DNA of 51,819 bases from Acidimicrobiales bacterium (GTDB lineage: Bacteria; Actinomycetota; Acidimicrobiia; Acidimicrobiales; VFJN01): contig JBPPMN010000009.1 in assembly GCA_051306055.1 (NCBI GenBank), positions 1 to 51,819 of the forward strand, in the 5' to 3' direction. The position numbers and the translations under genes are program-made. Positions 7,229 to 28,886 of this stretch are shown piece by piece. The notes beneath the pieces were generated by a model that saw nothing but the letters and a program-made list of their open reading frames with translations, did not search any database and was not told where the DNA came from. Numbering within the stretch: the first letter of the stretch is position 1; the number at the start of each line of letters is the position of its first letter.

Positions 7229-7239
7229 GGCCCCTGTTC

Positions 7240-8745
7240 CTAGTCGATGACGGTCTGGACGGGGGTGCCCGCCGGCGCCGGCGCCGGGCCCTCGAGCACG
7301 TGCTTGCGCAAGGTGACGGGCACGGCGACGGGGTAGTTGCCGGTGAAGCAGGCGTCGCAGAACCCGGCACCGGGGGCACCGGTGGAGGGGATCAGGCGGT
7401 CGAGCTGCACGTAGGCCAGCGTGTCGACGTTGAGGTAGTCGCGGATCTCGTCGATGGTGAGCGACGAGGCGAGCAGCTCGGTGCGGTCGCCGGTGTCGAT
7501 GCCGTAGAAGCACGACCACTTCACCGGCGGCGAGGTGATGCGCAGGTGCACTTCGGTGGCCCCAGCCTCCCGGAGCATCTTGGTGAGCTGCTTCTGGGTG
7601 GTGCCCCGCACGATCGAGTCGTCGACGACCACCAGGCGCTTGCCGGCGACGTTCTCGCGCAGCGGGTTGAGCTTCATGCGCACCGCCCGGGCCCGCAGCT
7701 CCTGGCTCGGGGCGATGAAGCTGCGGCCGATGTAGCGGTTCTTCACCACGCCCTGGCCGAAGGGGATGCCGCTGCGACGGGCGAAGCCCTCGGCGGCCGG
7801 CACGCCCGACTCGGGGACGCCCATCACCATGTCGGCCTCGACCGGCGCCTGGTCGGCCAGCTCCTCGCCGATGCGGATGCGGGCCTGGTGCACGCTCTGG
7901 TTGTAGAGGCGGGTGTCGGGCCGGGCGAAGTACACGAACTCGAACAGGCAGAGCTTGGGGTCGACCCGGGCGTCGGGGAAGGGGCGCAACGACCGGGGTC
8001 CGGAGGCGTCGATCACCACCATCTCGCCCGGCTCGATCTCGCGCACGAAGTGGGCGCCCACGACGTCGAGCGCCGGGCTCTCCGAGGCCAGCACCCAGCC
8101 CTGCTCCAGCTTGCCCAGGCACAACGGCCGGAAGCCGTTGGGGTCGCGCACGCCGATGATGCGTCCCTCGTCCATCATCACGAGAGAGAAGGCGCCCTCG
8201 AGCCGGGGCAGGACCTCGATGAGACCTCGCTCGATGTCGCGCTCGTCGCTGTGGCCCTCGGGGACCTTCTCCAGCTCAGCGGCCACCAGCTCGGCGACGA
8301 GGTCGGTGTCGCTGGTGACCGTGCCCGGCAGCATGCCGGCGTCGGCGGCCAGGGCCTCGGTGTTGGTGAGGTTGCCGTTGTGGCCGAGAGCGAAGTGGTG
8401 CGGACCGGCGCTGCGGTAGGCGGGCTGCGCGTTGCGCCAGGTGGACGAGCCGGTGGTGGAGTAGCGGCAGTGCCCGATGGCCAGGTGACCGTCGAGGCCG
8501 GCGAGGGTTCGGTCGTCGAACACCGAGGCCACCAGGCCCTGGTCCTTCACGACGAAGACCTCTCGGCCGTCGCTGACCGCCATGCCGGCGGACTCCTGGC
8601 CCCGGTGCTGGAGGGCGAACAGCCCGAGGTAGGTGAGGTGGGCGACGGGCTGGCCCGGGGCGTACACCCCGAACACCCCGCAGGCCTCCTTCAGGGAGTC
8701 GTCGACGTCGGGAGGCGGCACAACGGGCGGCTCACCGGCGGGCAT
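7240..8745 (-). CDS. purF: Amidophosphoribosyltransferase
   Basis: The N-terminal nucleophile context EACGVFGV, then QHRGQESAGMA, IGHCRYSTTG, GHNGNLTN, and the PRTase motif LVVVDDSIVRGTT. Confidence 0.95.
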   Translation of the reverse strand: MPAGEPPVVPPPDVDDSLKEACGVFGVYAPGQPVAHLTYLGLFALQHRGQESAGMAVSDGREVFVVKDQGLVASVFDDRTLAGLDGHLAIGHCRYSTTGSSTWRNAQPAYRSAGPHHFALGHNGNLTNTEALAADAGMLPGTVTSDTDLVAELVAAELEKVPEGHSDERDIERGLIEVLPRLEGAFSLVMMDEGRIIGVRDPNGFRPLCLGKLEQGWVLASESPALDVVGAHFVREIEPGEMVVIDASGPRSLRPFPDARVDPKLCLFEFVYFARPDTRLYNQSVHQARIRIGEELADQAPVEADMVMGVPESGVPAAEGFARRSGIPFGQGVVKNRYIGRSFIAPSQELRARAVRMKLNPLRENVAGKRLVVVDDSIVRGTTQKQLTKMLREAGATEVHLRITSPPVKWSCFYGIDTGDRTELLASSLTIDEIRDYLNVDTLAYVQLDRLIPSTGAPGAGFCDACFTGNYPVAVPVTLRKHVLEGPAPAPAGTPVQTVID

Positions 8746-8784
8746 GGACCCAGTCTGGCAGGAGTGGACAGCGATCCGACTACT

Positions 8785-9453
8785 TCAGGGGCGGGACGAG
8801 GGCGTCAGGGGGCGGCTCTCGACGCGATCGGCTCGGCGACGGCTGGCGGACAAGAGGGCGCGTCCGATCAGGAAGAGGGCCAGGGCGACGGCCAGCAGCA
8901 GGCCGACGTAGATGCCGGTGCGGGGGAGCGAGCCCCCGCCGACGTCGCCGCCACCCTGGCCCTGCGCGCTGCCGAGGACATCGAAGAGCCCGTCGGGATC
9001 GGGTCCGCAGCGGAGCGTGAAGTCGGCGCCGACGGCGGTGACGAGGTAGCGACCGGGGGTGAGGTCGGGCACGGTGAACGCGATGTCGAGGGTGGTGGTG
9101 GTGGCCTGGGCGGCCAGCACCTGCCCGCCGAAGGCCACCGGCGCGTCGGCGGACTGGCCCTGCAGAGGAGCGGTGCCTCGGGCCACCTCGGACCCACCGA
9201 GGAGGATGCGGACCGTGGCGCCGAAGGGCACGTTGGTGACCCGCACGCTGGCCGCCGCGCCCGGGGCCCCGGCGGTGAGGCTGAGGGCACAGGCGGGCTC
9301 GAGCTCGGGCGGCGCGGTGGTGGTCGTGGTGGTGGTGCCGCCGTAGGGATCCTGCGCGGCCGCGGGCCCGACGGTGCCGACCAGGGCGAGGCAGCAGGCC
9401 GCGAAGACGGCGCCGATGGCGGCTCGTCGTCGCACTGTGGACCTTGCCGTCAT
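8785..9453 (-). CDS. Secreted surface protein with an LPXTG-type sortase sorting signal and a poly-Thr tract
   Basis: Signal peptide MTARSTVRRRAAIGAVFAACCLALVGTVGPAAA|QD. A TTTTTTT run sits directly after the predicted cleavage site. The C-terminus has LPRTG, the hydrophobic IYVGLLLAVALALFLIG and the basic tail RALLSASRRR. GGGAG lies 8 nt upstream of the ATG. Confidence 0.7.
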   Translation of the reverse strand: MTARSTVRRRAAIGAVFAACCLALVGTVGPAAAQDPYGGTTTTTTTAPPELEPACALSLTAGAPGAAASVRVTNVPFGATVRILLGGSEVARGTAPLQGQSADAPVAFGGQVLAAQATTTTLDIAFTVPDLTPGRYLVTAVGADFTLRCGPDPDGLFDVLGSAQGQGGGDVGGGSLPRTGIYVGLLLAVALALFLIGRALLSASRRRADRVESRPLTPSSRP

Positions 9454-9520
9454 CTGCTCTGCTCCCGCCGGAGTCGTACCTCGAACTCCGCGAACTCTAC
9501 CAAACCACCCATACGCTACG

Positions 9521-11392
9521 TCATCGGAACACCGGGCCCACCGCGGCCGTCGGCTCGGTGGCCGGGGCGAGCACCCACTGCCGATCGAGTTCGACGCTTC
9601 CCTGCACGGCTCCTGCCTCGGTGGTCAGGTCGACCGCGACGCTGGTGGGCCGGATCCGCGGGGACGGGATCAGGACCACCTCGTAGTCGCCCGGGGGGCG
9701 GGGGGCCAGCTGCAGGGAGAGCGCCACCGTGCGGGCCTCCCCCGCCGCCAGGTCCACGATGAACGACGCGTAGGGTCGGCCCGCCTCGGTCCCGCTCGAC
9801 ACCGGTTCGACGGTGACGTCGCCTCCTGAGCCCTGGAGGCTGGCGCCCACCGGGAGGTAGAGCGTCACCAGGCTGCGGAGCGTGCCCGCCGGCAGCTGGG
9901 CCTCACCGGGGCCGGGGCCGAAGATGTAGGCGGGGACGGTGACATCGGCGGGGGCGGTGTTGGTGAGGGTGATCTCGGCCTCCACCTCCCCGAGGGCGCC
10001 GGCGGCACGGTCGCCGCTGAGGCGGAGCTCGGTGTCGAGGTAGTAGTCGAGCTTGTTGCCAGCCAGGTTCTGGGCGGTCAGCGCGAACGCGTCGCTGGCC
10101 CCGTCGACCTCCTCGACCGGCGGGTAGGCACCGTCGGCACCGAAGGCCTCTATGGCGGACTGCGCCCCCGACCGGTCGGCCCACATGAGCAGGTGGCGAC
10201 CGTCGACAGCGTCGACCAGCGCTTCGGCGAGGGGTCGCAGGCTGGGGAAGTCGCCATCGACGAGACGACGGAAGGCGGCTTCCGCCACGTCGCCCAGCAC
10301 GTCGGTGCGGGCTTCGACATCGGGGAAGAGGAAGTAGGCCTCGTTGAGCGTGAGGTCGACGACGTTGTCGGAGCGCACCTCGCCCAGCTCCGGCACCACC
10401 ACCGGTCCCACCCCCGCCAGGATGGCCGCCAGACCATCGGGGTCGACCTGGAGGACCCCGTTCACGGGTAGGCCCGAAGCTGAGGTGTAGAGCGCCTCGA
10501 GCACCGGAGCGACCACGGTGAAGTCGCCCGCGAGGTTGGCCTGCCGGAACCGCGACAGCGCATCGAACCCACCCCAGCGGGCCAGGTAGTCGTCGGGGAG
10601 GAGCTCGGTGCTCACCGGGCCCGGCACGGCCAGCTCGTCGATGTCGCCGAACTCCACGAGATCGATGACGCCGTCGCGGCCCTCCAGCACGCCGTAGTTG
10701 AGGATCATGCCGCCGGAGCCGCGCATCTCGGCCGTGTTGGCGACGGCGATGAGGTACCGGCGGGGACCGTCGGCGCCCGCCAGGTGGCCGAGGAGGTCGA
10801 GCCCACGGTTGAGCACCCCGAGCTGCTGCTCGCGCCCGGCGGCCTCGCCCAGCACTGCGTCGCGGGCCTCGGCCACCGGCGGCAGAAGAAGGCCCGACGA
10901 CGCCGACCGCCGCGCCTCGGACAGCTGGATGAGCAGGTGTGAGATCTCCCGCTGGGCACCGGTCACCGCGTCGATCGGGACGGTGCCGTCGGAGAGGCTC
11001 ACCTCAAGGGTCCCCTGGTCGGACTGCAGCGGCTCCGAGAGGTCGAGGATCCGCAGCCCGCCGTGGATCACCACCGCGGCGAGGTCGACCGACTCCTGCA
11101 GGCTGTGCAGGTTGGCTCCCGCGCCGGGCACCATCCGCAGGAGCCCGAGCCCGATGGAGCTGCGCAGCGTCTCGTTGGAGCTGAAGACGAGGTCTTGGGC
11201 TTCCCCGAGGGCGGCGGTGGCGTCGGCCAGGCGACCGTCGCGCAGCGCGACGGCGGCCTCGTCGACCAGGTCGTTGGCGTCCTGCAGGTCGGCGGAGACG
11301 CCCGCCACCTGGAGGCCGGTGACCACGATCAGGCTGCCCAGCAGCACGAGCGCGCCGGTGGCGACCAGCAGGCGCCGCATGCGTCGGCTCAT
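9521..11392 (-). CDS. DUF4012-family envelope protein (N-terminal TM anchor, large extracytoplasmic domain)
   Basis: MSRRMRRLLVATGALVLLGSLIVVTGL is the TM anchor. The family-typical core is YLIAVANTAEMRGSGGMILNYGVLEGRDG. I trimmed the track ORF 9521..12073 to the ATG at 11392, which forms an ATGA overlap with the upstream stop. Confidence 0.75.
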   Translation of the reverse strand: MSRRMRRLLVATGALVLLGSLIVVTGLQVAGVSADLQDANDLVDEAAVALRDGRLADATAALGEAQDLVFSSNETLRSSIGLGLLRMVPGAGANLHSLQESVDLAAVVIHGGLRILDLSEPLQSDQGTLEVSLSDGTVPIDAVTGAQREISHLLIQLSEARRSASSGLLLPPVAEARDAVLGEAAGREQQLGVLNRGLDLLGHLAGADGPRRYLIAVANTAEMRGSGGMILNYGVLEGRDGVIDLVEFGDIDELAVPGPVSTELLPDDYLARWGGFDALSRFRQANLAGDFTVVAPVLEALYTSASGLPVNGVLQVDPDGLAAILAGVGPVVVPELGEVRSDNVVDLTLNEAYFLFPDVEARTDVLGDVAEAAFRRLVDGDFPSLRPLAEALVDAVDGRHLLMWADRSGAQSAIEAFGADGAYPPVEEVDGASDAFALTAQNLAGNKLDYYLDTELRLSGDRAAGALGEVEAEITLTNTAPADVTVPAYIFGPGPGEAQLPAGTLRSLVTLYLPVGASLQGSGGDVTVEPVSSGTEAGRPYASFIVDLAAGEARTVALSLQLAPRPPGDYEVVLIPSPRIRPTSVAVDLTTEAGAVQGSVELDRQWVLAPATEPTAAVGPVFR

Positions 11393-12129
11393 GGCGCGGC
11401 CGGGTCCTGGGCGGCGCCGGCGCGGTCCTTGCTCTGGGCCAGGCTGAGGCCACCGCGCAGGAAGCGGAGCAGGACGTAGGTGAAGTAGACGGCGACCACG
11501 CCGGCCCCCACCTCGACCACGACGGCATCGTCGAGCAGGGCCCACAGCACTGGGACGCCGAAGAGGAAGGCGTGCTCGACGTCGATGCGCACCGGCGCTG
11601 GCACGAGCCGGTGCCGGGCCATCCACGCCACGTAGCGGCCGGGCATGGCGTCGGACGCCCGCCACATGGTGCCCTGCATCTCGGTGCTCAGCCGCACGGC
11701 CATGTGGGCGAGGAAGGCCACGACCGGCCCCAGCGCCAGGAGGGCGGGGGTCTCCGCCGTCCACAGGAGCCACAGGCCGAGACCCAGGAAGTTGGCCGCG
11801 GTGACGAGGTAGTCGCCCACGAAGTCGGCGTAGGCGCCGGCGGCCGAGGTGGTGCCGCGGCGCCGGGCCAGCTTGCCGTCCATGCAGTCGAGCACGAAGC
11901 GGATCTCGTAGAGCACGGCGGCCGCCAGCAGGTGGCCGAACGCGAAGAGCACGGCGGTGACCAGCCCGAGTCCGTGGGCCACCACTGTGAGCCGCATGGG
12001 GGTGACCCACCTCCACGGGTCGACGATCCGCACGAGGCGCACCGCGAACGGATCGACGGCCAGCACGGTCCACCAGGCGTCGAGTCGGTGGAGCTCGTCG
12101 TGCGGCGCCTCCGACGCGGGAGCGGTCAC
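11389..12129 (-). CDS. CDP-alcohol phosphotransferase family membrane protein (paralog A)
   Basis: The signature D-G-x2-A-R-x8-G-x3-D-x3-D is seen as DCMDGKLARRRGTTSAAGAYADFVGD. The protein has multiple hydrophobic helices. The start is GTG 12129, overlapping the upstream stop (GTGA). Confidence 0.75.
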   Translation of the reverse strand: MTAPASEAPHDELHRLDAWWTVLAVDPFAVRLVRIVDPWRWVTPMRLTVVAHGLGLVTAVLFAFGHLLAAAVLYEIRFVLDCMDGKLARRRGTTSAAGAYADFVGDYLVTAANFLGLGLWLLWTAETPALLALGPVVAFLAHMAVRLSTEMQGTMWRASDAMPGRYVAWMARHRLVPAPVRIDVEHAFLFGVPVLWALLDDAVVVEVGAGVVAVYFTYVLLRFLRGGLSLAQSKDRAGAAQDPAAP

Positions 12130-12824
12130 GCGGCGGCTGGCCGGGCGACAGCCACCAGCCCCCGGGCGTACTGGGGGAGCCGCTCGGCGATCAGGCCCGA
12201 TGCGTAGCCCATCGGGCCCCTGAGCGCCTGGCGCCAGTGGAGCGGCCGGGTGCGGTAGAAGCCGATCTCGACGGGCTCGAGGCCGCTCATGGTGAACAGC
12301 CGGGTGAGCGTGCTGGCCGAGTAGTAGGCGACGTGCTCCGGGTGCACGTTCTCGGTGCGGCCGGCCAACCGGGCCACCACCGAGAGGTTGAAGGCGTTGG
12401 GCACCGTGACCACGATCGAGCCGCCGGGGTCGAGCAGGGTGGCCAGCGACCGCAGCGCCGCGCCGGGGCACGGGAGGTGCTCCAGCACCTCGCCCAGCAC
12501 CACGTGATCGCAGCGCACGTCGGCCAACGCCGCCGGCCAGGAGGCAACAGGGGCCGTGATGTCGGCGTTGTGGTAGTCGGCCTCGATCTGGGTGCGGAAG
12601 GCGGCGATGGCGGCGTCGGAGATGTCGATGAACGTGGTGTGGGCGGCGACCCGGGCCAGGCGGGCGGAGAACGTGCCGCTCAGATCGGTGGCGTCGGTGA
12701 CGTTGAAGGAGTAGGTGGTGTCGTGTGTCTGGCCGCCGAGCCCGATGCTCACCACTCGAGTCCCCGCCACGCGATCGATCACGAACGAGGTGCGGTCGTG
12801 GAGCGCGGCGCGCTCGAGCCTCAC
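12126..12824 (-). CDS. Class I SAM-dependent methyltransferase
   Basis: VVSIGLGG is motif-I-like. DHVVLGEVLEHLPCPGAALRSLATLLDPGGSIVVTVPN is typical of the Methyltransf_11/23 type. The start is GTG 12824, with GGAGG 5 nt upstream. Confidence 0.75.
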   Translation of the reverse strand: MRLERAALHDRTSFVIDRVAGTRVVSIGLGGQTHDTTYSFNVTDATDLSGTFSARLARVAAHTTFIDISDAAIAAFRTQIEADYHNADITAPVASWPAALADVRCDHVVLGEVLEHLPCPGAALRSLATLLDPGGSIVVTVPNAFNLSVVARLAGRTENVHPEHVAYYSASTLTRLFTMSGLEPVEIGFYRTRPLHWRQALRGPMGYASGLIAERLPQYARGLVAVARPAAA

Positions 12825-12852
12825 CCGATCCTCCCCATCCCCATCGGGGCGA

Positions 12853-13977
12853 TCATAGGGACCGCCTCGGGCTCGGCCCGGAGCGGGCCAGGGCGAGGTA
12901 GCGGCGCGCCACCTCGGCGTGGTCGAACCCGGCGGCCAGCCGCTGGGCGCCAGCGCCGAGCTCGGTTCGGCGGTCGGGATCGGCGATGAGCGAGCGGATG
13001 GCCTTCGCCAGGCCGGCGGCATCGCCCACCTCGTGGAACAGCGCCTGGTCGCCGAGCGCCTCGCGATGGGCCGGGATGTCGGACACCACAAGGGGCCGGC
13101 CCGCCGCCATCGCCTCGAGCACCACCATCGAGAACGCCTCCCACAGCGACGGCTGCACCACGACGTCGGCCGCTCGCAGTGCGGCACCGACCTCCTCGGG
13201 GGAGACGTTCCCGACCATGGTGACTCGGTTCGCCAGACCGGTGTCGTCCACCTGCCGGGACAGCTCGGTGCGGAGGTCTCCTTCGCCGAGGATGGCGAGG
13301 TCGACCTCTGGGAGCTCGACCATCGCGGCGAGGAGCGTGCGGTGGTCCTTCTGCTCGGCCAGCCGACCGACCGCGACCACCAGCGGCCGGGTGGGGTCGG
13401 AGCGCGGGTCGCTCGCCCACCCACCGCTGTCAGCGTGGGCCGGCGCGCTCACGTCGATCCCGTTGTGGATCACGACCGCACCTCGCCGCGCCGCGGGGCC
13501 GTAGCTGTCGAGCGTGGACTGCGACACGTACACGTGGACCCCGACCAGGGGTGTGCGGCGCACGACCCGCAGCACGGCCCGTCGGAGCGGACTCTCGAAG
13601 TCGGCCACTACGTGGTGCACGGCGATGCGGCGCGGCACGCCGGCCAGCAGACCGGCCAGGGAGGCCACCACGATGGCGTGGAAGGTGTGGGCGATCAGGG
13701 CGGTCGGACGCTGGCGACGCAGGAGACGGCTCAGCCGAGCGACGAGGGCGAGGGTGCCGAACGGCCCGGGTCGGTCGGGCCGCAGATCGACGTAGCCCTC
13801 GTCGGCGAAGGCATCGGCCCGGCGGTAGAGGAACACGACCTCGCTCTCGACGCCGTCGGCTCGAAGGGCCTGGCACAGCTGGTGCGCCACCCGCTGGGCC
13901 CCCGCCGGCTCTCGTTGGGTGACCACCTGCACGATGCGCTCGGGGCCCGCTGCTCGTCGGGGTCGGCGCTCAGGCAT
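12853..13977 (-). CDS. GT4-family (GT-B) glycosyltransferase
   Basis: N-terminal IVQVVTQREPAGAQRVAHQL. The C-terminal donor-binding region reads LVVAVGRLAEQKDHRTLL...VVQPSLWEAFSMVVLEAMAAGRPLVVSD, an E-x7-E-like motif. Confidence 0.85.
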   Translation of the reverse strand: MPERRPRRAAGPERIVQVVTQREPAGAQRVAHQLCQALRADGVESEVVFLYRRADAFADEGYVDLRPDRPGPFGTLALVARLSRLLRRQRPTALIAHTFHAIVVASLAGLLAGVPRRIAVHHVVADFESPLRRAVLRVVRRTPLVGVHVYVSQSTLDSYGPAARRGAVVIHNGIDVSAPAHADSGGWASDPRSDPTRPLVVAVGRLAEQKDHRTLLAAMVELPEVDLAILGEGDLRTELSRQVDDTGLANRVTMVGNVSPEEVGAALRAADVVVQPSLWEAFSMVVLEAMAAGRPLVVSDIPAHREALGDQALFHEVGDAAGLAKAIRSLIADPDRRTELGAGAQRLAAGFDHAEVARRYLALARSGPSPRRSL

Positions 13978-14731
13978 CGGCGTCGGAGTGGGGACGCACC
14001 CGGTCGGCCTGGGCCGCCGCCCGCAGGGCCGACACCCCGAAGCGGAGGCCCTGGAGGGCGAAGTACACCGCCGACGCCGCGAGGCCGACCGCCACCAGGT
14101 CGGCGACGCCCGCCACGGCCAGCAGCGGGATCACGAACAGGGCGCCGTGCTCCACCTCGATGGTGGTCACCGTGGGGTAGATCCGGCGGCGGCGCAGCCG
14201 CCCCGCCACCCCGTGGAGCGACACCCGCTCGATCGGCTTGCGCAGGTCCAGCTCGGCGAACAGCGCGTCGCGCTGCTCCCTGAAGGCGAACTGCAGGGGG
14301 TAGGCGGCGGCGAGCGCCACCGCCAGCCACGGACGATCGATCGACGCTCCCAGCGCGACGAAGCTGGCCAGGACGACCACCTTGTCGGCGTTGGAGTCGA
14401 GCACGGCCCCGAACCGGGAGGTCTGCCCGCGGAGGCGGGCCAGCTTGCCGTCGAGGCAGTCGACGAAGAACCGGAGCTCGAACAGCAGCGCCCCCAGCAG
14501 CAGATGGTCGAGAGCGAAGGCCACCGCCGCCCCCACCCCGGCCAGCTGCGCGGCGACGGTGAGGCGGATCGGCGTGACGGCGCGCACGGGAGCGAGCCAG
14601 GCCAGGACCCGCACGCCGAGCGGGTCGATGAGCAGGACGGTCCAGGCGCTGTCGAGGGGCTTGAGCAGGGTGGCCCGCTGTTCGGCGGTGAGGGACCGGC
14701 GCTTGCCGTGGTCGGCGCGTCGGCCGCTCAA
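13970..14731 (-). CDS. CDP-alcohol phosphotransferase family membrane protein (paralog B)
   Basis: DCLDGKLARLRGQTSRFGAVLDSNAD, in a polytopic protein. It is collinear with paralog A (LDSAWTVLLIDPLGVRVL versus LDAWWTVLAVDPFAVRLV). The only in-frame start after the upstream stop is TTG 14731, which forms a TTGA overlap, so the start is uncertain. Confidence 0.7.
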   Translation of the reverse strand: MSGRRADHGKRRSLTAEQRATLLKPLDSAWTVLLIDPLGVRVLAWLAPVRAVTPIRLTVAAQLAGVGAAVAFALDHLLLGALLFELRFFVDCLDGKLARLRGQTSRFGAVLDSNADKVVVLASFVALGASIDRPWLAVALAAAYPLQFAFREQRDALFAELDLRKPIERVSLHGVAGRLRRRRIYPTVTTIEVEHGALFVIPLLAVAGVADLVAVGLAASAVYFALQGLRFGVSALRAAAQADRVRPHSDADA

Positions 14732-16242
14732 CTCGATCCACCGCGACGCGCTGCCCTGGAGGGATCCGCCACCGGGGGCGGGTCGGGGCGCGCCTCCAGG
14801 ACCGGCACCTGACCGGCTCGGTGTGCGTCGCGAAGGGCGATCGACACCGCCGTGACGAGGTAGAGCCCGCCGAAGCCCATGGTGGGCTCGGCCATCGCGT
14901 CGGAGGCGAGGCCGTTCATCCCGAGGACGGCCAGGAGCCCCACCAGGGCGATGCCATCGGGACGGGCCCGGATCACCTGCACCACGGTGAGGTTCCGCAC
15001 GACGGTGAACACGATGGCCAGGAGCAGGATCACCGCCACGATGCCGCCGCTGACCAACCACGAGAGGATGGAGTTGTGGGCGTTGCGGGCCCACGGTCCG
15101 ACGTCGAGGAACATCGTGCGAGCCACCCCGTAGCCGAGGCCGAACGTCCAGTCGAACAGCGTGTCGAGCGCTCGGGCGCCGACCGACCAGAGACCGAGCC
15201 GACCGTTGCCGGTGGCCAGCGACTCGGAGTCGTCGTCGCGCAGGAGGTACTCCCCGATCCGGGCGCCCCAGAACGTGTAGGCGGCGAAGCCCACCATGGC
15301 CACCAGCGGGGCGCCCACCGAGCGCAGGAGCGGGCGGAGGCGACCGGCCAGCGCGAAGGTGAGGGAGGCACCGCACACCAGCTCGAGCCACGACATGCGG
15401 GAGTGGTTGGCGTAGAGCGCCGCCACCATGGTCACCACGGCCATCGCCCGCGACACCGGAGAGAGGCGCAGGACCGAGCCCGGCGCGGTGAGGGCAACGA
15501 TCAGCGCGGCGGCCAGCACCAGCCCAGAGGCGTTGGGGTGGGCGCCCATCCACGTGAACCGCTCGAGGTTGGCGCCGCCAGCGGGGACGAAGATCGGACC
15601 GAGGGCCAGCCCGACGAAGACCAGCCCGACGGCCAGGCGCACCAACCATCGCAGGTAGGTGCCGATGAGCACGTCGAGCACCTCACGGTGCTCGCGGGCG
15701 GCCGCCACCGTGGCCCAGGCCAGGACGGCGATGATCAGCATCTGGAGCCCACGAGCGAAGGCGTAGGGCCCGAACGGGCTCCACGTGGCCGACGCCATGG
15801 CCCACACCGGAAGGGCCAGCAGCAGGATCGGGGGGCGGGCCACCTGCAGACCGGGTTCGAAGCGACCGATGACGGTGACCGCGAAGGCGGCCACGACGAG
15901 GAAGTAGCTCAGCTCGATGGCCGGCTCGACGCCAACCTCCGACACCGCCACCGTGGTGGGCCGGATGATGAAGCTGTGGAGCGGCAGGATGGTGACCACC
16001 AGCCACGACGCGGCGAGGGGACCCGCCACGGCCCGCTCAGCCGAGACGCCACCGCGGCGCAGGGCGATGGCTCGGCGCACGACGAGCAGGTTCCCCACGA
16101 CCAGCATCGCGAAGAGCGCCATGGTCACGAAGAAGCCCAGCGAACCGGCCTGGGAGAGGACGGCGAGGCTGAGCACGACGAGACCGCCCACCAGCACCTG
16201 CATGCACCGCACGGTAGTGCTCGGAGGGGGCACAAGGTCCAT
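14728..16242 (-). CDS. O-antigen ligase / polymerase-like polytopic membrane protein (Wzy_C domain)
   Basis: At least 10 hydrophobic segments. WMGAHPNASGLVLAAALIV and NAHNSILSWLVSGGIVAVILL are typical of the Wzy_C (RfaL/Wzy/PglL) family. The alternative start ATG 16203 (MQVLVGG) is preceded by TACCGT at a 7-nt distance. Confidence 0.75.
   Translation of the reverse strand: MDLVPPPSTTVRCMQVLVGGLVVLSLAVLSQAGSLGFFVTMALFAMLVVGNLLVVRRAIALRRGGVSAERAVAGPLAASWLVVTILPLHSFIIRPTTVAVSEVGVEPAIELSYFLVVAAFAVTVIGRFEPGLQVARPPILLLALPVWAMASATWSPFGPYAFARGLQMLIIAVLAWATVAAAREHREVLDVLIGTYLRWLVRLAVGLVFVGLALGPIFVPAGGANLERFTWMGAHPNASGLVLAAALIVALTAPGSVLRLSPVSRAMAVVTMVAALYANHSRMSWLELVCGASLTFALAGRLRPLLRSVGAPLVAMVGFAAYTFWGARIGEYLLRDDDSESLATGNGRLGLWSVGARALDTLFDWTFGLGYGVARTMFLDVGPWARNAHNSILSWLVSGGIVAVILLLAIVFTVVRNLTVVQVIRARPDGIALVGLLAVLGMNGLASDAMAEPTMGFGGLYLVTAVSIALRDAHRAGQVPVLEARPDPPPVADPSRAARRGGSS
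16211..16216 (-). promoter_or_regulatory. Putative -10 element (TACCGT on the minus strand) 7 nt before the alternative ATG 16203 of the Wzy_C gene
   Basis: The minus strand reads CACTACCGT GCGGTGC ATG. If this element is used, the gene is leaderless and starts at 16203. Confidence 0.2.
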
Positions 16243-16306
16243 AAGGGTCAGCGGCGGGAGGCGATCCAGGGGTCGGCGGCGAACTCGAACCCGAGGTGCC
16301 TCCGGC

Positions 16307-16312
16307 TAGGTT
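16307..16312 (+). promoter_or_regulatory. Putative -10 element (TAGGTT within GGCTAGGTT) upstream of the BY-kinase gene
   Basis: The 9-mer GGCTAGGTT (16304-16312) is identical to the one at 25011-25019. It lies 33 nt upstream of GTG 16346. Confidence 0.25.
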
Positions 16313-16345
16313 GAGGCGCCGCCCGAGCGACGGATCGAGCCCTGC

Positions 16346-17899
16346 GTGCTGACCACCCAACTCACCCTGCGCGAGTACCTGGACGTGTTGCGTCGGCGGC
16401 GCTGGGTCGTCCTGTTCGTCCTGGGCGTCACCGTGCTCCTGGGCGTGCTCCCCGTCGCGCTGGGCGACGCGACCTATGCGTCCACGGCATCGCTGCAGGT
16501 CACGTCCGAGGAGGCCAGCCCCTTCGACGACCCCGACCCCAACGTCCAGGGTCAGGTCCGCTCGGTGCTGACCGACGTCGAGCGGCTCAAGACCAGCGGC
16601 CTCCGGGCGCTGGTCAGCGAGCAGCTCGGACCCGACGCCGAGCCGTTCGACACCGTGAGCGCAACGCTGATCGGGTTCAGCGAGGTCATCGAGGTCACCG
16701 TGACCGCCGGGTCCCCCGCAGCGGCGGCCGACGCGGCCAACGCCTACGCCGACGTCTTCGTGGAGGAGCGGCGCCGCGAGTCCAACGAGGCGCTGGTGTC
16801 GCAGTCGGACGAGCTCCGAGGCCGGGCCGAGTCAGCGCAGGACCGGGTCACCGAGATCGATCGGCAGCTGGCCGACCCCGCCACCGACCCCGCCTCGCTC
16901 GAAGGGCTGCGCCTCGAGCGCAGCAGCGTCGCGCTGCAGGTCTCCGACTTCGGTCGGCGCGCCGACCAGCTCGAGGTCGAGGCCGCGCTGCGCGAGGGCG
17001 GGATCCAGGTGCTGTCGCGCGCCACCCTGGAGCTCGACCCCGTCGGCACCAGCCCGATCCGGGCCGGCTTCGTCGCCGGCGTGCTCGGGCTGCTGGCGGG
17101 CCTGGCGGTGGCGGTGATCCTCGACATCGTCCAAGACCGCCTCTCCAGCCGAGACGACCTCGACGCGGTGGCGCCCGATCTCAGCGTGCTGGCGTCGATC
17201 CCGCACATGCCCGACGTGGCCCACCCCACACCGGAGGCGATCGAGGCCTACCGCTACCTGAGCACCACGTTGGAGTTCAGCCGGATGCGCAACCCGTTCC
17301 GATCCGTGGTGATCACCAGCGCGGTGAGCTCGGAGGGCAAGACCACCACCGCGGTGCACCTGGCCAAGGCCATGGCGGAGATGGACCAGCGGGTGGTGCT
17401 CGTCGATGCCGACATCCGTCGCACCGGCGTGCACCGCGAGCTGGGGCTCGACAACCGGCTCGGCCTCAGCTCGGTGCTGACCGGCGAGACCGACGTGGAG
17501 TCGGCCATCCACTACGTGGAGCCGCGGTTGGCTGTCCTCACCGCGGGGCCCGCCTCGGCGGTGGCCAACGAGCTGGTGGGCAGCGACGAGTTCGCGGCGC
17601 TCGTGCAGGAGCTGGCCGCCCAGTGCGACCTGCTGATCGTCGACGCACCGCCGGTGCTGCCCGTGGCCGACCCCCTGCTGGTCGCCCGCGCCGTCGACGT
17701 GGCCATCGTGGTGTCGCGCATCGGGGTCGTGCGCCGCCGAGAGGTGCGAGCCACCATCCGGCGCTTCCGCGAGGCCTCGCTGCCCCTCGTCGGCCTCGTG
17801 GCCAACGACGCCGAGCCCGAGAAGGGCTACGTGGCCTACCACGCCAACCCGGGCGGCGACCGTGGCGCCGATGCCAAGATCGCCTCGACCAGCGGCTGA
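16346..17899 (+). CDS. Polysaccharide co-polymerase fused to a BY-type tyrosine autokinase (Wzz domain plus CpsD/CapB-like ATPase)
   Basis: The N-terminus is LREYLDVLRRRRWVVLFVLGVTVLLGV (Wzz-type TM1), followed by a coiled periplasmic region and a second TM segment, GFVAGVLGLLAGLAVAVIL. Kinase motifs: Walker A VVITSAVSSEGKTTTAVHLA, Walker A' VVLVDADIRR, and DLLIVDAPP. The C-terminal tail has only two Tyr (GYVAYH). Confidence 0.85.
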   Translation: MLTTQLTLREYLDVLRRRRWVVLFVLGVTVLLGVLPVALGDATYASTASLQVTSEEASPFDDPDPNVQGQVRSVLTDVERLKTSGLRALVSEQLGPDAEPFDTVSATLIGFSEVIEVTVTAGSPAAAADAANAYADVFVEERRRESNEALVSQSDELRGRAESAQDRVTEIDRQLADPATDPASLEGLRLERSSVALQVSDFGRRADQLEVEAALREGGIQVLSRATLELDPVGTSPIRAGFVAGVLGLLAGLAVAVILDIVQDRLSSRDDLDAVAPDLSVLASIPHMPDVAHPTPEAIEAYRYLSTTLEFSRMRNPFRSVVITSAVSSEGKTTTAVHLAKAMAEMDQRVVLVDADIRRTGVHRELGLDNRLGLSSVLTGETDVESAIHYVEPRLAVLTAGPASAVANELVGSDEFAALVQELAAQCDLLIVDAPPVLPVADPLLVARAVDVAIVVSRIGVVRRREVRATIRRFREASLPLVGLVANDAEPEKGYVAYHANPGGDRGADAKIASTSG

Positions 17900-17911
17900 C
17901 CCCGACTGGGC

Positions 17912-18685
17912 TCAGGCGGTGCGGACCGGGCGGCGGCGAGCGACCCGCCAGAGGAACCGCGGGTTCCCGACGAGGTAGCGACGGGCCAGCCGTCGAGGCT
18001 CCTGCGCGAAGCGCACCACCCACTCGAGGCCGGCGCGGCGCACCCACACCGGGGCCCGGCGACGCCGGCCGACGAAGTACTCGAACACCGCCCCCACGCA
18101 CCACCACACCCGGGGCTCCCCTTCGGCCGACCACCGCTCGGCCCGCTCCTCCTGCAGCGGGGCGCCCATCCCGAGCAGCACCAGCCCGGGATCGAGCGCC
18201 GCGATCGAGCGCAGCACCTCTCGCTCGCCCGCCTCGTCGAGGTACCCCGAGGCGGTCAGGACCACGTCGAGCTGCGGGCACGCTCGACGCATCACCGTGG
18301 CGAAGCCCTCGGCGTCCCCCGGCCGGCCACCGACCAGCGCCACCGACACCCCACGGGCCGCGACCGCGCCCAGCACATCGCTCACCACGTCGGTCACGTT
18401 GACGCGCTCCGGCAGTGGCTGGGCCAGGTGACGAGCGGCCCAGACGATCGACTGGCCGTCGGCCACGAGGCAGTCGAAGCGGGCCAGGCGCTCGGCGAAC
18501 CCACCGTCGGACGCCGCCAGGTCGACCGTGGCCGCGTTGACGTAGCCCACCAGCGTCGGCCGCTCGGACCCAGCGCTGGCCTCGGCCATCCACCGGCCGA
18601 ACCCGGCGCAGTCGAAGGCGTGGACGGGGAGGCCGAGCAGGTCGCGCACCACCACCGCCGCATGGGCCGGCCCGTGCTCAGGCAC
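17912..18685 (-). CDS. WecG/TagA/CpsF-family glycosyltransferase
   Basis: GYVNAATVDLA, CLVADGQSIVWAAR, VALVGGRPGDAEG, LVLLGMGAPLQE, WWCVGAVFEYFVG. The start is GTG 18685, overlapping the upstream stop. GTGs a few codons downstream are also possible. Confidence 0.8.
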   Translation of the reverse strand: MPEHGPAHAAVVVRDLLGLPVHAFDCAGFGRWMAEASAGSERPTLVGYVNAATVDLAASDGGFAERLARFDCLVADGQSIVWAARHLAQPLPERVNVTDVVSDVLGAVAARGVSVALVGGRPGDAEGFATVMRRACPQLDVVLTASGYLDEAGEREVLRSIAALDPGLVLLGMGAPLQEERAERWSAEGEPRVWWCVGAVFEYFVGRRRRAPVWVRRAGLEWVVRFAQEPRRLARRYLVGNPRFLWRVARRRPVRTA

Positions 18686-19427
18686 CCAGCGCCCTCGCCG
18701 CAGCCAGGTCGGTCTCGTCGTCGATCTCGACCCACTCGCTCGAGGGCACCGCCACGGCCCGGTAGGGGGCACCGCCGACGAGGTGCTCCTGGATGGCGTG
18801 CTCGTACCAGTGGTCGGACCGGTGCGGCTGCTCGACGAACGCCCTCAGCTCCGCGGCCAGCCCCCGCGCCGCGAGGCGGTCGAACCAGGCCAGGCCCACG
18901 TACTCGCCGTCGGGATCAGGGATCCCCACCTTGCCGATCGCGGTGACCCCGCCGTCGCTCCCAACGGCCACCTTCATTGCCTCGTCGGTGCGGCCGCGGG
19001 CATGGTCGACGGCCAGCCCCGCCCCTGAGCCGAGCGAGGTGATCGAGCTGAGCAGGGCGCTGAACCAGGCGGGCGACGCGTAGAGATCGGAGTTGACGAC
19101 CACGACGTCGCCCCCCGGGCCGCTGCCGCCGTCGTCGCAGCTCTCCAGACCGAGCAGCAGGGAGTACCAGTTGTTGCGGTCGGCCGCCCGCGGGTTGGGC
19201 ACAACCTCGATGGCCAGCCGGGTGCGCCAAGGGGCGAGCACCCGCTCGATGGCGTCGGCACCGGGGCCCACCACCACATGGGTGCGGTCGATGCCCGACC
19301 GCTCGAAGGCAGCCAGCTGCGCCTGCGCGGGGCAGGTGGCCTGCACGGGGGTGAGCCACTTCGGCAGCGCGGTGACCTGCGCCAGACGGCGACCGAGCCC
19401 GGCCGCCAGCACCACGACCGCCGTCAT
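18678..19427 (-). CDS. NTP-transferase-fold nucleotidyltransferase (probable polyol-/sugar-phosphate cytidylyltransferase)
   Basis: MTAVVVLAAGLGRRL is the nucleotide-binding G-loop. NRNNWYSLLLGLE, VVVNSDLY and EYVGLAWF follow. The ATG at 19427 forms an ATGA overlap with the upstream stop. I cannot read substrate specificity from the sequence. Confidence 0.75.
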   Translation of the reverse strand: MTAVVVLAAGLGRRLAQVTALPKWLTPVQATCPAQAQLAAFERSGIDRTHVVVGPGADAIERVLAPWRTRLAIEVVPNPRAADRNNWYSLLLGLESCDDGGSGPGGDVVVVNSDLYASPAWFSALLSSITSLGSGAGLAVDHARGRTDEAMKVAVGSDGGVTAIGKVGIPDPDGEYVGLAWFDRLAARGLAAELRAFVEQPHRSDHWYEHAIQEHLVGGAPYRAVAVPSSEWVEIDDETDLAAARALGA

Positions 19428-20485
19428 CCGAGAGCTGAGCGGATCAGGGCCCGGAGCTCGTCGCCGGAGTGCTCGACCTCGTCGAGCACGGTACGGCGAC
19501 CCGGACGGGTGCCGGGCCCCCTCCGGACGGCCTCCACCAGGAGGTCCTCCTCGATGCGCCACCCCTCGACGGAGGAGGGCAGACCGATGCGGGTGAAGAG
19601 GCGGCGCACCTGGTCGAGGTGCGGGCTCCCCTGCAGGGCGGAGGTGATCAGCACCCCGATGGCCACGTGCTCGCCGTGGAGCAGGGCCTGGTCGCCACAG
19701 AGCTGGTCCAGGGCGTGGCTGATGAGGTGCTCGGCGCCGGAGCAGGGCCGGCTGCTGCCTGCCACCTCCATGGCCAGCCCGCTCATCACCAGGCCGCGGG
19801 CCACCGCCGCCACGTCGTCGTCGCGCAGGGGCCACGCGACGTCGAGGGCGGCCTGGGCGCTCAGCACCGCGATGGCCGCCGCGAACTCGTCGAAGGGCTC
19901 AGCCCCTCGGGCGTGGGCCGCCCGCCAGTCGTCGACCGCGGTGAGGTTGCTGGTGAGGTCGCCGATCCCGGCTCGCACGTAGCGATCGGGCGCGGCCGCC
20001 ACCACGTCGACGTCGATCACCACACCGGTCGGCATCTGGGCACCGATGCTGCGCCGCACGCCGTCGGCACCCGTGAGCGAGGCGACCGGCGACGCCATGC
20101 CGTCGTGGGAGAGCACGGTGGGCACGGCGACGAGGTCGACCCCGGCCCGACAGGCGGCCAGCTTGGCGACGTCGATGGGCTGCCCACCGCCGATCCCCAC
20201 GACGAGCGAGGCGGGCGCCTCGTCGAGGCAGCTGAGCAGCGCGGCCGCATCGGCCAACGAGCCGACCAGGCCGGAGCGCACCTCCACCTCGGCACCCACC
20301 GTCGCGAGGTCCTTGGCCAGACCCTCACCGAGGGCTCGCGACACGTCGCCGCCCGTCGCCACGAGGACGCGGCCCAGCTCGAAGTGCTCCCGGAGGTCGC
20401 CGGCCAGGTCGTGGAGCGCGCCGGGCTCCACCCGCAGCAGGCGCGGGACGTCGATCGTGCGCGCTCCCCTGGCTCCACGCTGCAC
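19424..20485 (-). CDS. sn-Glycerol-1-phosphate dehydrogenase-like enzyme (EgsA/AraM branch of the Fe-ADH/DHQS-like superfamily)
   Basis: GIGGGQPIDVAKLAA, PTVLSHDGMASPVASL, GIGDLTSNLTAVDDW, SGAEHLISHALD, LHGEHVAIGVL. This pattern is characteristic of G1P dehydrogenases. The start is GTG. Confidence 0.7.
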   Translation of the reverse strand: MQRGARGARTIDVPRLLRVEPGALHDLAGDLREHFELGRVLVATGGDVSRALGEGLAKDLATVGAEVEVRSGLVGSLADAAALLSCLDEAPASLVVGIGGGQPIDVAKLAACRAGVDLVAVPTVLSHDGMASPVASLTGADGVRRSIGAQMPTGVVIDVDVVAAAPDRYVRAGIGDLTSNLTAVDDWRAAHARGAEPFDEFAAAIAVLSAQAALDVAWPLRDDDVAAVARGLVMSGLAMEVAGSSRPCSGAEHLISHALDQLCGDQALLHGEHVAIGVLITSALQGSPHLDQVRRLFTRIGLPSSVEGWRIEEDLLVEAVRRGPGTRPGRRTVLDEVEHSGDELRALIRSALG

Positions 20486-20555: not shown

Positions 20556-21578
20556 TCACAACCCGCTGTGGGTGGTGTCCGGGCGCACCTGCCCGGTCAC
20601 CCGCCACTTCACCTGCCGCAGCACGTCGGCGGCGCGCCGGGCACCGGCCGGCTGCACGCCCATCATCCTTCGCAGCCACCGGTGGTAGGTCGGCCCGGGA
20701 GGGGGCAGGGGCTTCTCCGCCGCGAGGTGGGCCACCAGGTTCGGGAAGCCGATCTCCTTCTCGATGGGGAGGTGCCAGGCGATCAGGTCGTCGTGCATCC
20801 GCTCGCGCGTGCCCCAGACGCCCGGCAGGGTGCGGATGCGCTGCAGGTGGGGATGGGCACGGCTCGAACGCTCCCGGCGCTGCCAGAGCACGGCGTTGAT
20901 CACGTGCTCCTCGCTGTTGTGGTGCGCCCGCCCGGCCGCGTGGCGCCGCAGCATCTCCTTCCACATGGACTCCACCGCGGCGGCGAAGGCCGGCACCTCC
21001 GAGCCGAGCATCCCGTAGAACTCTCCACCGAAGTGGCGGGGCACGGTGCCGTCGAGATCGGTCCCGGTCAGCTCCTGGAGGATGGCGGCCTGATCGCGCC
21101 GGCTGAGATCGCACATCGGCAGGTCCTCGTCGACGACCAGCTCGTAGGCCACGATCCCACCGGCTTCGATCTCCTCCACCAGCGGACCGTAGGGCGCTCC
21201 CCACACCACGTCGGGATCGATGAACATCACCACGTCGTCGGGGCCGACCCAGCCGGCGGCGTCCTGCAGGGCGTCGAGCAGGTAGAGCGACCCGAGGTAG
21301 CGGTCGTAGAAGCCCTCGGGGGGACGGTGGTCGAACGGCACGACGCGGACCGTGACCCCGGCGTCGTCGAGCACCGGTCGCAGCCAGGCCGGCGGTCCGC
21401 TCCCGGCGCACACCACGAACTCCAACGGTGTGTCGGCCACGTGCCGCATCGTGGCCGCGTTGGCCGCGATGCAGGTCCAGTAGGTGTCGTCGCGCCGTCC
21501 GGCGGGTCCGCTCCGCGGGTGCTCGGAGTGCTCACGGAAGTAGCTCACGACCGCCACCACGCGCCGCCCCTGTGTCAT
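20556..21578 (-). CDS. Hypothetical cytoplasmic protein, possibly a GT-A-like transferase (DxD motif)
   Basis: 340 aa with no hydrophobic segments. VVAVVSYFRE ... VVMFIDPDVVWG resembles an N-terminal Rossmann-like beta strand plus a DxD motif. I recognise no family with confidence. The start is ATG 21578, or GTG 21584 with a GTGA overlap. Confidence 0.5.
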   Translation of the reverse strand: MTQGRRVVAVVSYFREHSEHPRSGPAGRRDDTYWTCIAANAATMRHVADTPLEFVVCAGSGPPAWLRPVLDDAGVTVRVVPFDHRPPEGFYDRYLGSLYLLDALQDAAGWVGPDDVVMFIDPDVVWGAPYGPLVEEIEAGGIVAYELVVDEDLPMCDLSRRDQAAILQELTGTDLDGTVPRHFGGEFYGMLGSEVPAFAAAVESMWKEMLRRHAAGRAHHNSEEHVINAVLWQRRERSSRAHPHLQRIRTLPGVWGTRERMHDDLIAWHLPIEKEIGFPNLVAHLAAEKPLPPPGPTYHRWLRRMMGVQPAGARRAADVLRQVKWRVTGQVRPDTTHSGL

Positions 21579-24966: not shown

Positions 24967-25013
24967 ACCCACCGCCCGAGGGACAATTTGCCTGAAGCGG
25001 ACGACGGTCGGGC

Positions 25014-25019
25014 TAGGTT
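25014..25019 (+). promoter_or_regulatory. Putative -10 element (TAGGTT within GGCTAGGTT) 8 nt before GTG 25028
   Basis: GGCTAGGTT ccctcgct GTG, with no Shine-Dalgarno in between. Confidence 0.3.
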
Positions 25020-25027
25020 CCCTCGCT

Positions 25028-25876: not shown

Positions 25877-25881
25877 GTCGG

Positions 25882-26835: not shown

Positions 26836-26866
26836 ATCCGGTACCGACGACCTCCGCGGAGCGCAG

Positions 26867-28814: not shown

Positions 28815-28886
28815 CGCACCGCCGCTCCGTGCTCGGGCCGCACGCCCGGCGGGCGAGAGCGCCACGACCAAGCTCGGTCAGGGAGG

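Follow-up and report, generated by a model that had tools for sequence, protein, structure and literature searches.

In a 51,819-nucleotide (nt) stretch of DNA from an Acidimicrobiales bacterium (contig JBPPMN010000009.1; this whole stretch is called the window below), a set of glycan genes seems to direct the synthesis of a teichoic-acid-type phosphodiester glycopolymer, in which the precursor route and the class of the transferases are non-canonical. Four genes are central to this proposal: K, whose product falls in the sn-glycerol-1-phosphate (G1P) dehydrogenase (G1PDH) family, J, which codes for a putative cytidylyltransferase, and C and F, which code for two cytidine diphosphate (CDP)-alcohol phosphotransferases. 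On balance, we consider it somewhat probable that this uncultured Acidimicrobiia-type actinobacterium makes an activated glycerol phosphate independently of TagD and puts it on a surface glycopolymer; the donor half of the model, in which K and J make a CDP-glycerol, merits more confidence than the acceptor half. An initial annotation had already read the genes as a path from G1P through activation with cytidine triphosphate (CTP) to CDP-alcohol phosphotransferases. This reading is supported by all the computational checks that had been proposed with it, none of which gave a result that overturns it.

The K protein matches the Pfam family Fe-ADH_2 (PF13685) with an E-value of 1e-32, and its best NCBIfam model is that of G1P dehydrogenase (NF002022, 258 bits); with the models of glycerol dehydrogenase and dehydroquinate (DHQ) synthase, it reaches 86 and ~30 bits. 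Among solved structures, K comes closest to the G1PDH of Pyrobaculum calidifontis (5fb3, E 9e-50, 173 bits) and to that of Methanocaldococcus (4rgq, E 2e-36), whereas the PDB chains of characterised glycerol dehydrogenases score at most 67 bits, with the exception of 3ce9, which is labelled glycerol dehydrogenase and scores 159 bits. On the NCBIfam scores and the PDB matches, K was rejected as a glycerol dehydrogenase or a DHQ synthase. Judged by these comparisons, K is part of a divergent bacterial clade of the G1PDH family, 30-37% identical to the archaeal enzymes. When 51 J-linked bacterial homologues were aligned with 30 archaeal G1PDHs, K was found to have kept the archaeal invariants D105, K108, D128, S132, D176, D186-W187, S245-R-P-C-S-G250, H253, H257, H270, R327 and R330. 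In both sets of sequences, conservation reaches at least 98% for the Asp/His/His metal site (D176, H253/H257, H270), the S245-RPCSG-250 segment and the arginines R327 and R330. Retention of the invariant polar residues is what would be expected if the phosphorylated substrate, dihydroxyacetone phosphate (DHAP) or G1P, had been retained, and the conserved arginines would likewise fit a phosphorylated substrate.

The J protein belongs to Pfam NTP_transf_3 (PF12804) and carries the N-terminal LAAGxGxRL signature, in which G10, G12 and R14, together with K23 further on, are invariant among 30 homologues. The single sequence is recognised weakly, and a profile of the 30 homologues was needed to place it. 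Searched against the PDB, this profile found the CTP:phosphocholine cytidylyltransferase LicC (1e-17), the CTP:inositol-1-phosphate cytidylyltransferase (IPCT) of Archaeoglobus fulgidus (3e-16), IPCT-DIPPS (2e-15) and the phosphonate cytidylyltransferase PntC (5e-15), all of which outrank the GlmU/RmlA-type sugar-1-phosphate nucleotidyltransferases. The AlphaFold model (pLDDT 94.9) gave the same neighbours, the top Foldseek matches being LicC, PntC and the Thermotoga maritima IPCT with TM-scores of 0.77-0.80. From the profile and the modelled fold, J is thus best described as a LicC/IPCT/PntC-type cytidylyltransferase, and the enzymes of this type closest to it all use CTP on small phospho- or phosphono-alcohols. 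The earlier proposal of an NTP-transferase that works with CTP therefore holds at the level of the enzyme class. G1P is the predicted partner of CTP, because J is coupled to K and to transferases of the CDP-glycerol type.

The gathering cutoff of Pfam CDP-OH_P_transf (PF01066) is 22 bits, which C and F exceed with 41 and 59 bits, respectively, and both have the complete D-x2-DG-x2-AR-x8-G-x3-D-x3-D motif, which reads DCLDGKLARLRGQTSRFGAVLDSNAD in F and DCMDGKLARRRGTTSAAGAYADFVGD in C. With 246 and 253 amino acids (aa) and 37% identity to each other, they are the two paralogues of ~250 aa that had been recognised initially, and the pair of a C-type and an F-type enzyme is kept in the Acidimicrobiia relatives. 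The best scores of the pair with the NCBIfam models of phospholipid synthases are far below the cutoffs (PIPS 48 for a cutoff of 170, PgsA 36 for 109, PssA 31 for 107, ClsA 32 for 240), and both are also far under the cutoff of NF041135. The AlphaFold model of F (pLDDT 92) matches 4mnd, 5d92, 6h59 and 4o6m with a Foldseek probability of 1.0, IPCT-DIPPS, the PIP synthases and AF2299 being nearer to it than PgsA or PSS. On these scores and structural neighbours, C and F were rejected as PgsA, PssA or PIPS. The best PDB sequence match of F is AF2299, which reportedly was crystallised with CDP-glycerol (PDB 4q7c). The use of soluble CDP-polyol donors by CDP-alcohol phosphotransferases is established for IPCT/DIPPS enzymes (4mnd).

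The linkage of these genes was followed across genomes from both sides. For the K side, genomes were scanned with a K-family alignment, one genome was kept per species, and all open reading frames (ORFs) of the loci were searched with iterated hidden Markov models (HMMs). Because the distances were taken from stop-to-stop ORFs, which overextend the N-termini, a distance of 0 denotes adjacency and not an exact overlap. Plain tblastn with C and F overlooked most divergent transferases beside K and J, and these were recovered by a motif search with regular expressions and by the iterated HMMs. The nearest relatives of K are found in Acidimicrobiales/Acidimicrobiia metagenome-assembled genomes, first in locus L001 (80% identity, fully syntenic) and then in L002 and L003; Solirubrobacterales and Thermoleophilia follow at ~46%, and then the archaeal G1PDHs at 30-37%. 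A J gene is adjacent to K in 48 of the 53 bacterial loci with a K homologue and in 0 of the 30 archaeal ones, an association far beyond chance. The J-linked K genes are spread over Acidimicrobiia, Solirubrobacterales, Thermoleophilia, Gaiellaceae, Kribbellaceae, Frankiaceae, Propionibacteriaceae, Streptosporangiales, Patescibacteria and WOR-3.

A C/F-type transferase lies within ~2 kb of the J-K pair in ~28 loci (in L001, the distances are 3.9 and 6.6 kb), and taking both scans, 28 loci have a transferase contiguous with J and K on one strand, so that a J-K-transferase operon is a frequent arrangement. In L083, for instance, overlapping J, K and transferase genes are set in a locus with Wzm/Wzt and glycosyltransferase family 4 (GT4) and family 2 (GT2) genes. 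In 13 other loci, the gene beside the J-K pair codes instead for a protein of the TagB/F family (Glyphos_transf, PF04464); these loci are mainly of Solirubrobacterales and Gaiellaceae types (L005-L011, L015, L017, L018) and include L081 (11085-12266) and L082 (11068-12300). Two non-homologous transferase families, one of them defined by the use of CDP-glycerol, thus alternate beside K and J. This alternation, which the initial annotation had not foreseen, is the strongest available argument that K and J supply a CDP-glycerol-type donor, and it suggests that the C/F-type enzymes are functional substitutes for TagB/F. Motif and probe scans within the flanks found no TagD-like gene in the 86 K-side loci or in the C/F-side loci, and a third conserved gene beside K and J was found neither in L081, L082 and L083 nor in the J-K-transferase operons. 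In L008 and L014, the K-J pair sits among housekeeping genes with no transferase nearby, and K and J can thus be a stand-alone precursor module. In three Thermoleophilaceae loci (L046, L054, L069), the HMM matches suggest the order transferase-J-K-transferase, one transferase only having a perfect motif by regular expression.

The C/F family itself is rare, with 23 proteins at E<=1e-5 in an index of 5.8 billion proteins and 166 clusters at E<=1e-30 among 1.84 billion representatives. A scan of metagenomes with a C/F alignment gave 80 loci, 26 of which were at least 7 kb long and were counted; K and/or J lies within 10 kb in 15 of these 26. The co-occurrence across related genomes that the initial annotation had set as a check is thus strong in both directions. 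Among the loci without K/J, L165 has its C/F-family gene beside GT2 and phosphodiesterase genes. In L135 and L149 (~8194-13202 and ~18000-20348), the C/F-family gene is accompanied by genes for a Stealth hexose-1-phosphoryltransferase, two sulfotransferases and Glyphos_transf, with no G1PDH gene nearby, which suggests a different kind of locus, for a phospho- and sulfo-glycan. Most members of the family, though not all, are therefore found in glycan loci, and the linkage of the family to K/J is strong but not obligatory.

Within the window, which has 72% GC, the gene models were picked by the GC content of the third codon position (GC3) and by frame switches; lists of longest ORFs were discarded, since at this GC content they hold many overlapping spurious ORFs. 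The genes, lettered A to N in Table 1, follow one another on the minus strand in the order N-M-L, K-J-I and G-F-E-D-C-B-A, with H on the plus strand between I and G. The locus had initially been delimited as 11389-20485; the features named in it lie on the minus strand at their given coordinates, but the unit is wider, from 9521 to ~23616, as it extends down to 9521 with the DUF4012 gene B and up to 23616 with N-M-L upstream of K. At the K/J junction (GGATGACGG), the TGA of K and the ATG of J overlap as ATGA, and J overlaps the WecG/TagA-like gene I by 8 nt (GTGCCTGA). In the second operon, the overlaps are 4 nt for G/F, 8 nt for F/E, 4 nt for D/C and ATGA for C/B, with a gap of 28 nt between E and D. 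The gene overlaps given in the initial annotation are thereby confirmed, both for the K-J-I genes and for the coupling of the two CDP-alcohol phosphotransferases to the GT4, methyltransferase, Wzy_C and DUF4012 genes. The I protein matches Glyco_tran_WecG with an E-value of 5e-49 and NCBIfam TIGR00696 above the cutoff, its TarA match being below the cutoff. The B gene is syntenic in the relatives, and the N-M-L block is syntenic in L001 and L089. The methyltransferase gene D has been inserted between E and C in this lineage: the syntenic relatives L001 and L085-L089 are all devoid of D, and in them E and C abut directly. No Pfam or NCBIfam model matches the L protein, even at an E-value of 0.1; it is soluble and is found in the closest relatives only, and its DPD motif might be that of a GT-A-like transferase. 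Because of this restriction to the closest relatives, the idea that L is a Gtp3-like kinase and a conserved part of the module was rejected. A scan for promoters and terminators gave nothing informative.

Table 1. Glycan genes and flanking features of the window
Feature	Position	Strand	Product	Family match or other basis
N	22540-23616	-	GT4 glycosyltransferase	Pfam
M	21581-22543	-	GT2 glycosyltransferase	Pfam
L	20556-21578	-	Orphan, 340 aa, directly upstream of K	No Pfam family
K	19424-20485	-	G1P dehydrogenase family, 353 aa	Fe-ADH_2
J	18678-19427	-	Putative LicC/IPCT-type cytidylyltransferase, 249 aa	NTP_transf_3
I	17912-18685	-	WecG/TagA/CpsF-family glycosyltransferase, 257 aa	PF03808
H	16346-17899	+	Wzz chain-length domain and BY-type tyrosine kinase in one protein; gene divergent from G	Pfam Wzz and P-loop ATPase families; NCBIfam TIGR01007 above cutoff
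G	14728-16242	-	Polytopic Wzy_C protein (O-antigen polymerase/ligase family)	PF04932; ~11 hydrophobic segments
F	13970-14731	-	CDP-alcohol phosphotransferase, paralogue 2, 253 aa	PF01066
E	12853-13977	-	GT4 glycosyltransferase between F and C	Pfam Glycos_transf_1 and Glyco_transf_4
D	12126-12824	-	S-adenosylmethionine (SAM)-dependent methyltransferase	Pfam Methyltransf_23/11/12
C	11389-12129	-	CDP-alcohol phosphotransferase, paralogue 1, 246 aa	PF01066
B	9521-11392	-	DUF4012 protein, 623 aa	PF13196, E 2e-29
A	8785-9453	-		No Pfam family
Purine flank	6197-8745 side		purD, purK, purE, purB, purC, purS, purQ, AT3-SGNH acyltransferase, purL	
Purine flank	39831-51666		purF, purM	
Second glycan gene set	23668-39809			
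ORF	25882-27180	-		Coding-like GC3 only at ~26011-26581; no significant family
Dehydratase and reductase	26489-28814		GDP-mannose-4,6-dehydratase-like protein and reductase	
Methyltransferase	28887-29960		TylF-type SAM methyltransferase	
Wzm	34379-35227		ABC exporter component	
Wzt	to 36444		ABC exporter component	Wzt_C domain
Priming enzyme	39090-39809		Phosphoglycosyltransferase	Bac_transf

The statements on genes absent from the window cover this 51,819-nt stretch. The absence of TagD, TagB and TagF noted initially was reproduced: Pfam scans of nearly all GC3-supported ORFs found none of them, the best tblastn match to two PF04464 proteins had an E-value of 0.58, and neither scans for the HxGH and RTxGISTT motifs nor a TagD probe detected TagD. 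The probe sequence was only approximate, and for TagD the result rests mainly on the Pfam and motif scans. The Pfam scans likewise found no PcrB/GGGPS homologue, and no MIPS was found in the window. A window without PcrB/GGGPS, TagD and TagF fits the model of a CDP-glycerol-derived glycopolymer, and a role of K in the AraM/PcrB ether-lipid pathway was rejected, as there is no PcrB in the window. No TagO-type (PF00953) protein was found in the window either, the sole priming enzyme being the Bac_transf phosphoglycosyltransferase and the sole ABC exporter Wzm/Wzt (34379-36444), both in the neighbouring gene set. The polytopic proteins of the window are only G, C, F, Wzm and the AT3 acyltransferase, and the Wzy_C protein G could be a polymerase or a ligase.

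In the pathway that we propose, K would reduce DHAP with NAD(P)H to G1P, and J would convert G1P and CTP to the sn-1 enantiomer of CDP-glycerol. The TagA-like protein I and the GT4 and GT2 transferases would build a lipid-linked glycan intermediate. With active sites predicted at the cytoplasmic membrane surface, C and F would transfer glycerophosphate from CDP-glycerol to hydroxyls of this glycan, releasing cytidine monophosphate (CMP), and would take the role that TagB/TagF-family enzymes have in canonical teichoic-acid synthesis. The two paralogues may use different acceptor hydroxyls, either in a division between primer and extender like that of TagB and TagF or at two sites. Assembly or export of the polymer may fall to G (Wzy_C), H (Wzz-kinase) and B (DUF4012), and D would methylate it. 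The predicted product is a teichoic-acid-like phosphodiester glycan with sn-glycerol-1-phosphate.

Several observations weigh against this pathway or parts of it. The 258 bits of K are below the equivalog cutoff of NF002022 for archaeal G1PDH (413), and with a score of this order the specificity of K could have drifted. Presumably, Gtp1 of pneumococci is a homologue of K, and a related dehydrogenase together with a LicC-like enzyme can yield CDP-2-glycerol. C and F lie outside the K-J operon, 4-7 kb from it and past the divergent gene H. About 40% of the C/F-family loci with adequate flanks have no K/J within 10 kb, and in L114, which is one of them, the C/F-family gene is located amid housekeeping genes. 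Some members of the family are thus found outside glycan loci, and the family may take other donors or acceptors. Other sources of CDP-glycerol, including TagD and TagF, may also exist elsewhere in the genome, as the searches were made in the window. No Wzx/MurJ-type flippase was found across the whole window, despite the Wzy_C and Wzz-kinase genes, which leaves the route of assembly and export uncertain. To our knowledge, none of the enzymes in the clades of K, J and C/F has been characterised biochemically.

Some of these points could also be accommodated by a different activated alcohol. K might reduce another ketone, and J activate another polyol phosphate, such as glycerol-2-phosphate formed from dihydroxyacetone via glycerol, or a product of another ketose phosphate, which C and F would then install from the corresponding CDP-polyol. 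The sub-equivalog score of K and the orphan gene directly upstream of it are compatible with this, as is the pneumococcal CDP-2-glycerol pathway, which reportedly pairs a dehydrogenase with a nucleotidyltransferase. Yet the orphan L is confined to the closest relatives, and the conserved module is made up of K, J and a transferase only, with no third kinase-like gene in L081, L082, L083 or the J-K-transferase operons. Moreover, K keeps every polar invariant of the archaeal G1PDHs, including three arginines, and the alternative partners of K and J are of the CDP-glycerol glycerophosphotransferase family, so that we regard this alternative as unlikely. A lipid acceptor is, in our opinion, improbable as well. 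In that case, C and/or F would be Kennedy-type enzymes that transfer glycerol phosphate from CDP-glycerol to diacylglycerol or a glycolipid anchor and give rise to phosphatidylglycerol-type lipids or to the start of an amphiphile like lipoteichoic acid (LTA). Most characterised phosphotransferases with soluble CDP-alcohol donors, such as CEPT1, do use lipid acceptors, a Bacteroides vulgatus cluster of a polyol-phosphate synthase, an NTP transferase and a CDP-alcohol phosphotransferase is predicted to make inositol lipids (PMC9246714), some C/F-family genes are outside glycan loci, as in L114, and Patescibacteria and WOR-3 have the trio of K, J and transferase genes as well. In the window, however, C and F are translationally coupled to the Wzy_C, GT4 and DUF4012 genes, and K and J to the TagA-like transferase gene; elsewhere, L083 and the Streptomyces cluster adjoin TagGH/Wzm-Wzt exporters and glycosyltransferases, and the partner in 13 loci is a TagB/F-family enzyme, which acts on glycopolymers. 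A lipid acceptor may nevertheless apply to some members of the C/F family.

Two further explanations appear very improbable to us. Since J and C/F resemble IPCT and DIPPS, and the minimal J-K-transferase operons would nearly suffice for it, the genes might serve a compatible-solute pathway leading, for example, to diglycerol phosphate, in the manner of IPCT/DIPPS or of the glycerol phosphodiester solutes of Archaeoglobus. The module has, however, no conserved phosphatase, the two paralogous transferases sit in an operon with polymerase, glycosyltransferase and chain-length-regulator genes, and the alternative TagB/F-family partners yield polymers and not solutes. It is just as hard to believe that the clustering is coincidental, C and F being ordinary phospholipid synthases and K an AraM-like enzyme of ether-lipid synthesis with no functional tie to the glycan genes, although homologues of C/F are labelled phosphatidylglycerophosphate synthase at JGI and bacterial G1PDH is classically linked to the PcrB ether lipid (PMC6431249). 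Against it, C and F are under all curated PgsA, PssA, PIPS and Cls cutoffs, their family is as rare as stated above (166 clusters), the K/J linkage recurs across phyla, and Pfam scans found no PcrB/GGGPS in the window.

The proposed glycerol phosphate pathway resembles the canonical synthesis of wall teichoic acid (WTA; TagO-TagA-TagD-TagB-TagF-TagGH) in that glycerol phosphate from CDP-glycerol is predicted to be placed on a lipid-linked glycan through a phosphodiester, a TagA/WecG-family gene is coupled to the genes of donor synthesis, and K and J adjoin TagB/F-family genes in other lineages. It differs in the precursor, which is glycerol-3-phosphate derived from GpsA/GlpK in the canonical pathway and would come from an archaeal-type G1P dehydrogenase here, in the fold of the cytidylyltransferase (the HxGH fold of TagD as opposed to the LicC/IPCT fold), in the transferases (PF04464 proteins as opposed to polytopic CDP-alcohol phosphotransferases), in the presence of Wzy_C and Wzz-kinase genes, and in the predicted sn-1 stereochemistry. 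With IPCT/DIPPS and AF2299, which are among the best structural matches of J and F, it shares the succession of a polyol-phosphate synthase, a LicC/IPCT-type cytidylyltransferase and a CDP-alcohol phosphotransferase acting on a soluble CDP-polyol; in the IPCT/DIPPS case, the polyol is inositol from MIPS and not, as predicted here, glycerol from G1PDH, the two enzymes are fused and not separate proteins, and the product is a solute, whereas the genes described here lie in a glycopolymer locus. K is in the same family as the B. subtilis AraM of the AraM/PcrB pathway and the archaeal EgsA. In those systems, G1P goes to a prenyltransferase for ether-lipid synthesis, whereas the enzyme coupled to K in 48 of the 53 bacterial loci is a cytidylyltransferase, with no PcrB/GGGPS in the window.

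In the pneumococcal CDP-2-glycerol pathway, attributed to Wang et al. in 2010, Gtp1 is said to convert dihydroxyacetone to glycerol, which is then phosphorylated to glycerol-2-phosphate. The genes named gtp1, gtp2 and gtp3 are in a Wzy-type capsule locus (PMC1391919). There, as is predicted for the window, a dehydrogenase and a LicC-like nucleotidyltransferase in a Wzy-type locus feed a CDP-polyol onto a repeat unit, WchX being the further component. Pneumococcal teichoic acid, with TarI/TarJ, LicD and a Wzy-type polymerase, is a neighbouring system. The pneumococcal CDP-2-glycerol pathway needs Gtp3 (glycerol-2-phosphotransferase) as a third enzyme and a LicD-type transferase; by contrast, no conserved third gene accompanies K and J in the loci compared, and the transferase is a CDP-alcohol phosphotransferase or of the TagB/F family. 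The closest parallel in gene content is a teichoic-acid-related region of Streptomyces, in which a pan-proteome synteny survey of 2026 lists araM, a sugar-phosphate nucleotidyltransferase, a CDP-alcohol phosphatidyltransferase, a GT2 and tagG/tagH together (PMC13118837). The gene set is the same, but it comes with an ABC-type exporter in Streptomyces and with Wzy_C and Wzz-kinase genes in the window, and the survey gives a synteny listing without mechanism or experiment. The gene combination had been thought to be uncharacterised; a full-text literature search indeed found no biochemical study of G1PDH, cytidylyltransferase and CDP-alcohol phosphotransferase in combination, but the gene set itself had already been listed in that survey. 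Only one article found treats G1PDH and CDP-glycerol jointly, and its authors argue that bacteria lack the route (PMC8262930).

The glycan genes form a ~31-kb island (8.8-39.8 kb) in a purine-biosynthesis operon, between purL and purF/purM, and the purF/purM flank is common to the relatives L085 and L086. At the purL end, gene A, the neighbour of the DUF4012 gene, codes for a protein whose N-terminus is signal-like and which has a Thr-rich stretch and, at its C-terminus, LPRTG followed by a hydrophobic helix and an RRR tail; from these features, A is a predicted sortase-type cell-wall anchored protein. On the other side of N lies a second glycan gene set, separate from the first. Besides the features listed in Table 1, it contains genes for a GT4, GT2s, a hexapeptide acyltransferase, an NTP_transferase and at least five SAM methyltransferases, the TylF-type enzyme among them. 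This content suggests an ABC-exported methylated deoxyhexose polymer.

Two lines of earlier work give the proposed pathway its wider setting. A deep bacterial G1PDH clan, found mostly in Firmicutes and Actinobacteria, has been discussed solely for archaeal-like lipids (Coleman et al. 2019, PMC6431249), and the poly(glycerol phosphate) LTA of Actinobacteria without LtaS has been presented as an unresolved question (Cot et al. 2011, PMC3196553). We tentatively extend our model to both, although we hold this extension to be possible rather than probable. K and J would then form a widespread bacterial pathway to CDP-sn-1-glycerol, which would be the reason why many Actinobacteria, and here and there members of other phyla, have the 'archaeal' G1PDH, and which, with TagB/F or the C/F clade, would build wall or membrane-anchored polymers of the sn-1 poly(glycerol phosphate) type, including the LTA-like polymers of LtaS-less Actinobacteria. 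If our model is correct, teichoic-acid-type chemistry can arise from an entirely different set of enzymes, in which an archaeal-type G1P dehydrogenase and a LicC/IPCT-type cytidylyltransferase work together with CDP-alcohol phosphotransferases, and the latter would be a third enzyme class adding glycerol phosphate to glycans, besides the TagB/F family and the LtaS/GacH-type enzymes. It would offer a cell-envelope explanation for bacterial G1PDH genes, which have so far been read as a capacity for archaeal-like lipids in the debates on the 'lipid divide' (PMC6431249), and would provide candidate genes for LtaS-independent poly(glycerol phosphate) LTA or WTA in Actinobacteria (PMC3196553). As the module is also present in Streptomyces (PMC13118837), which is genetically tractable, these predictions are open to experiment.

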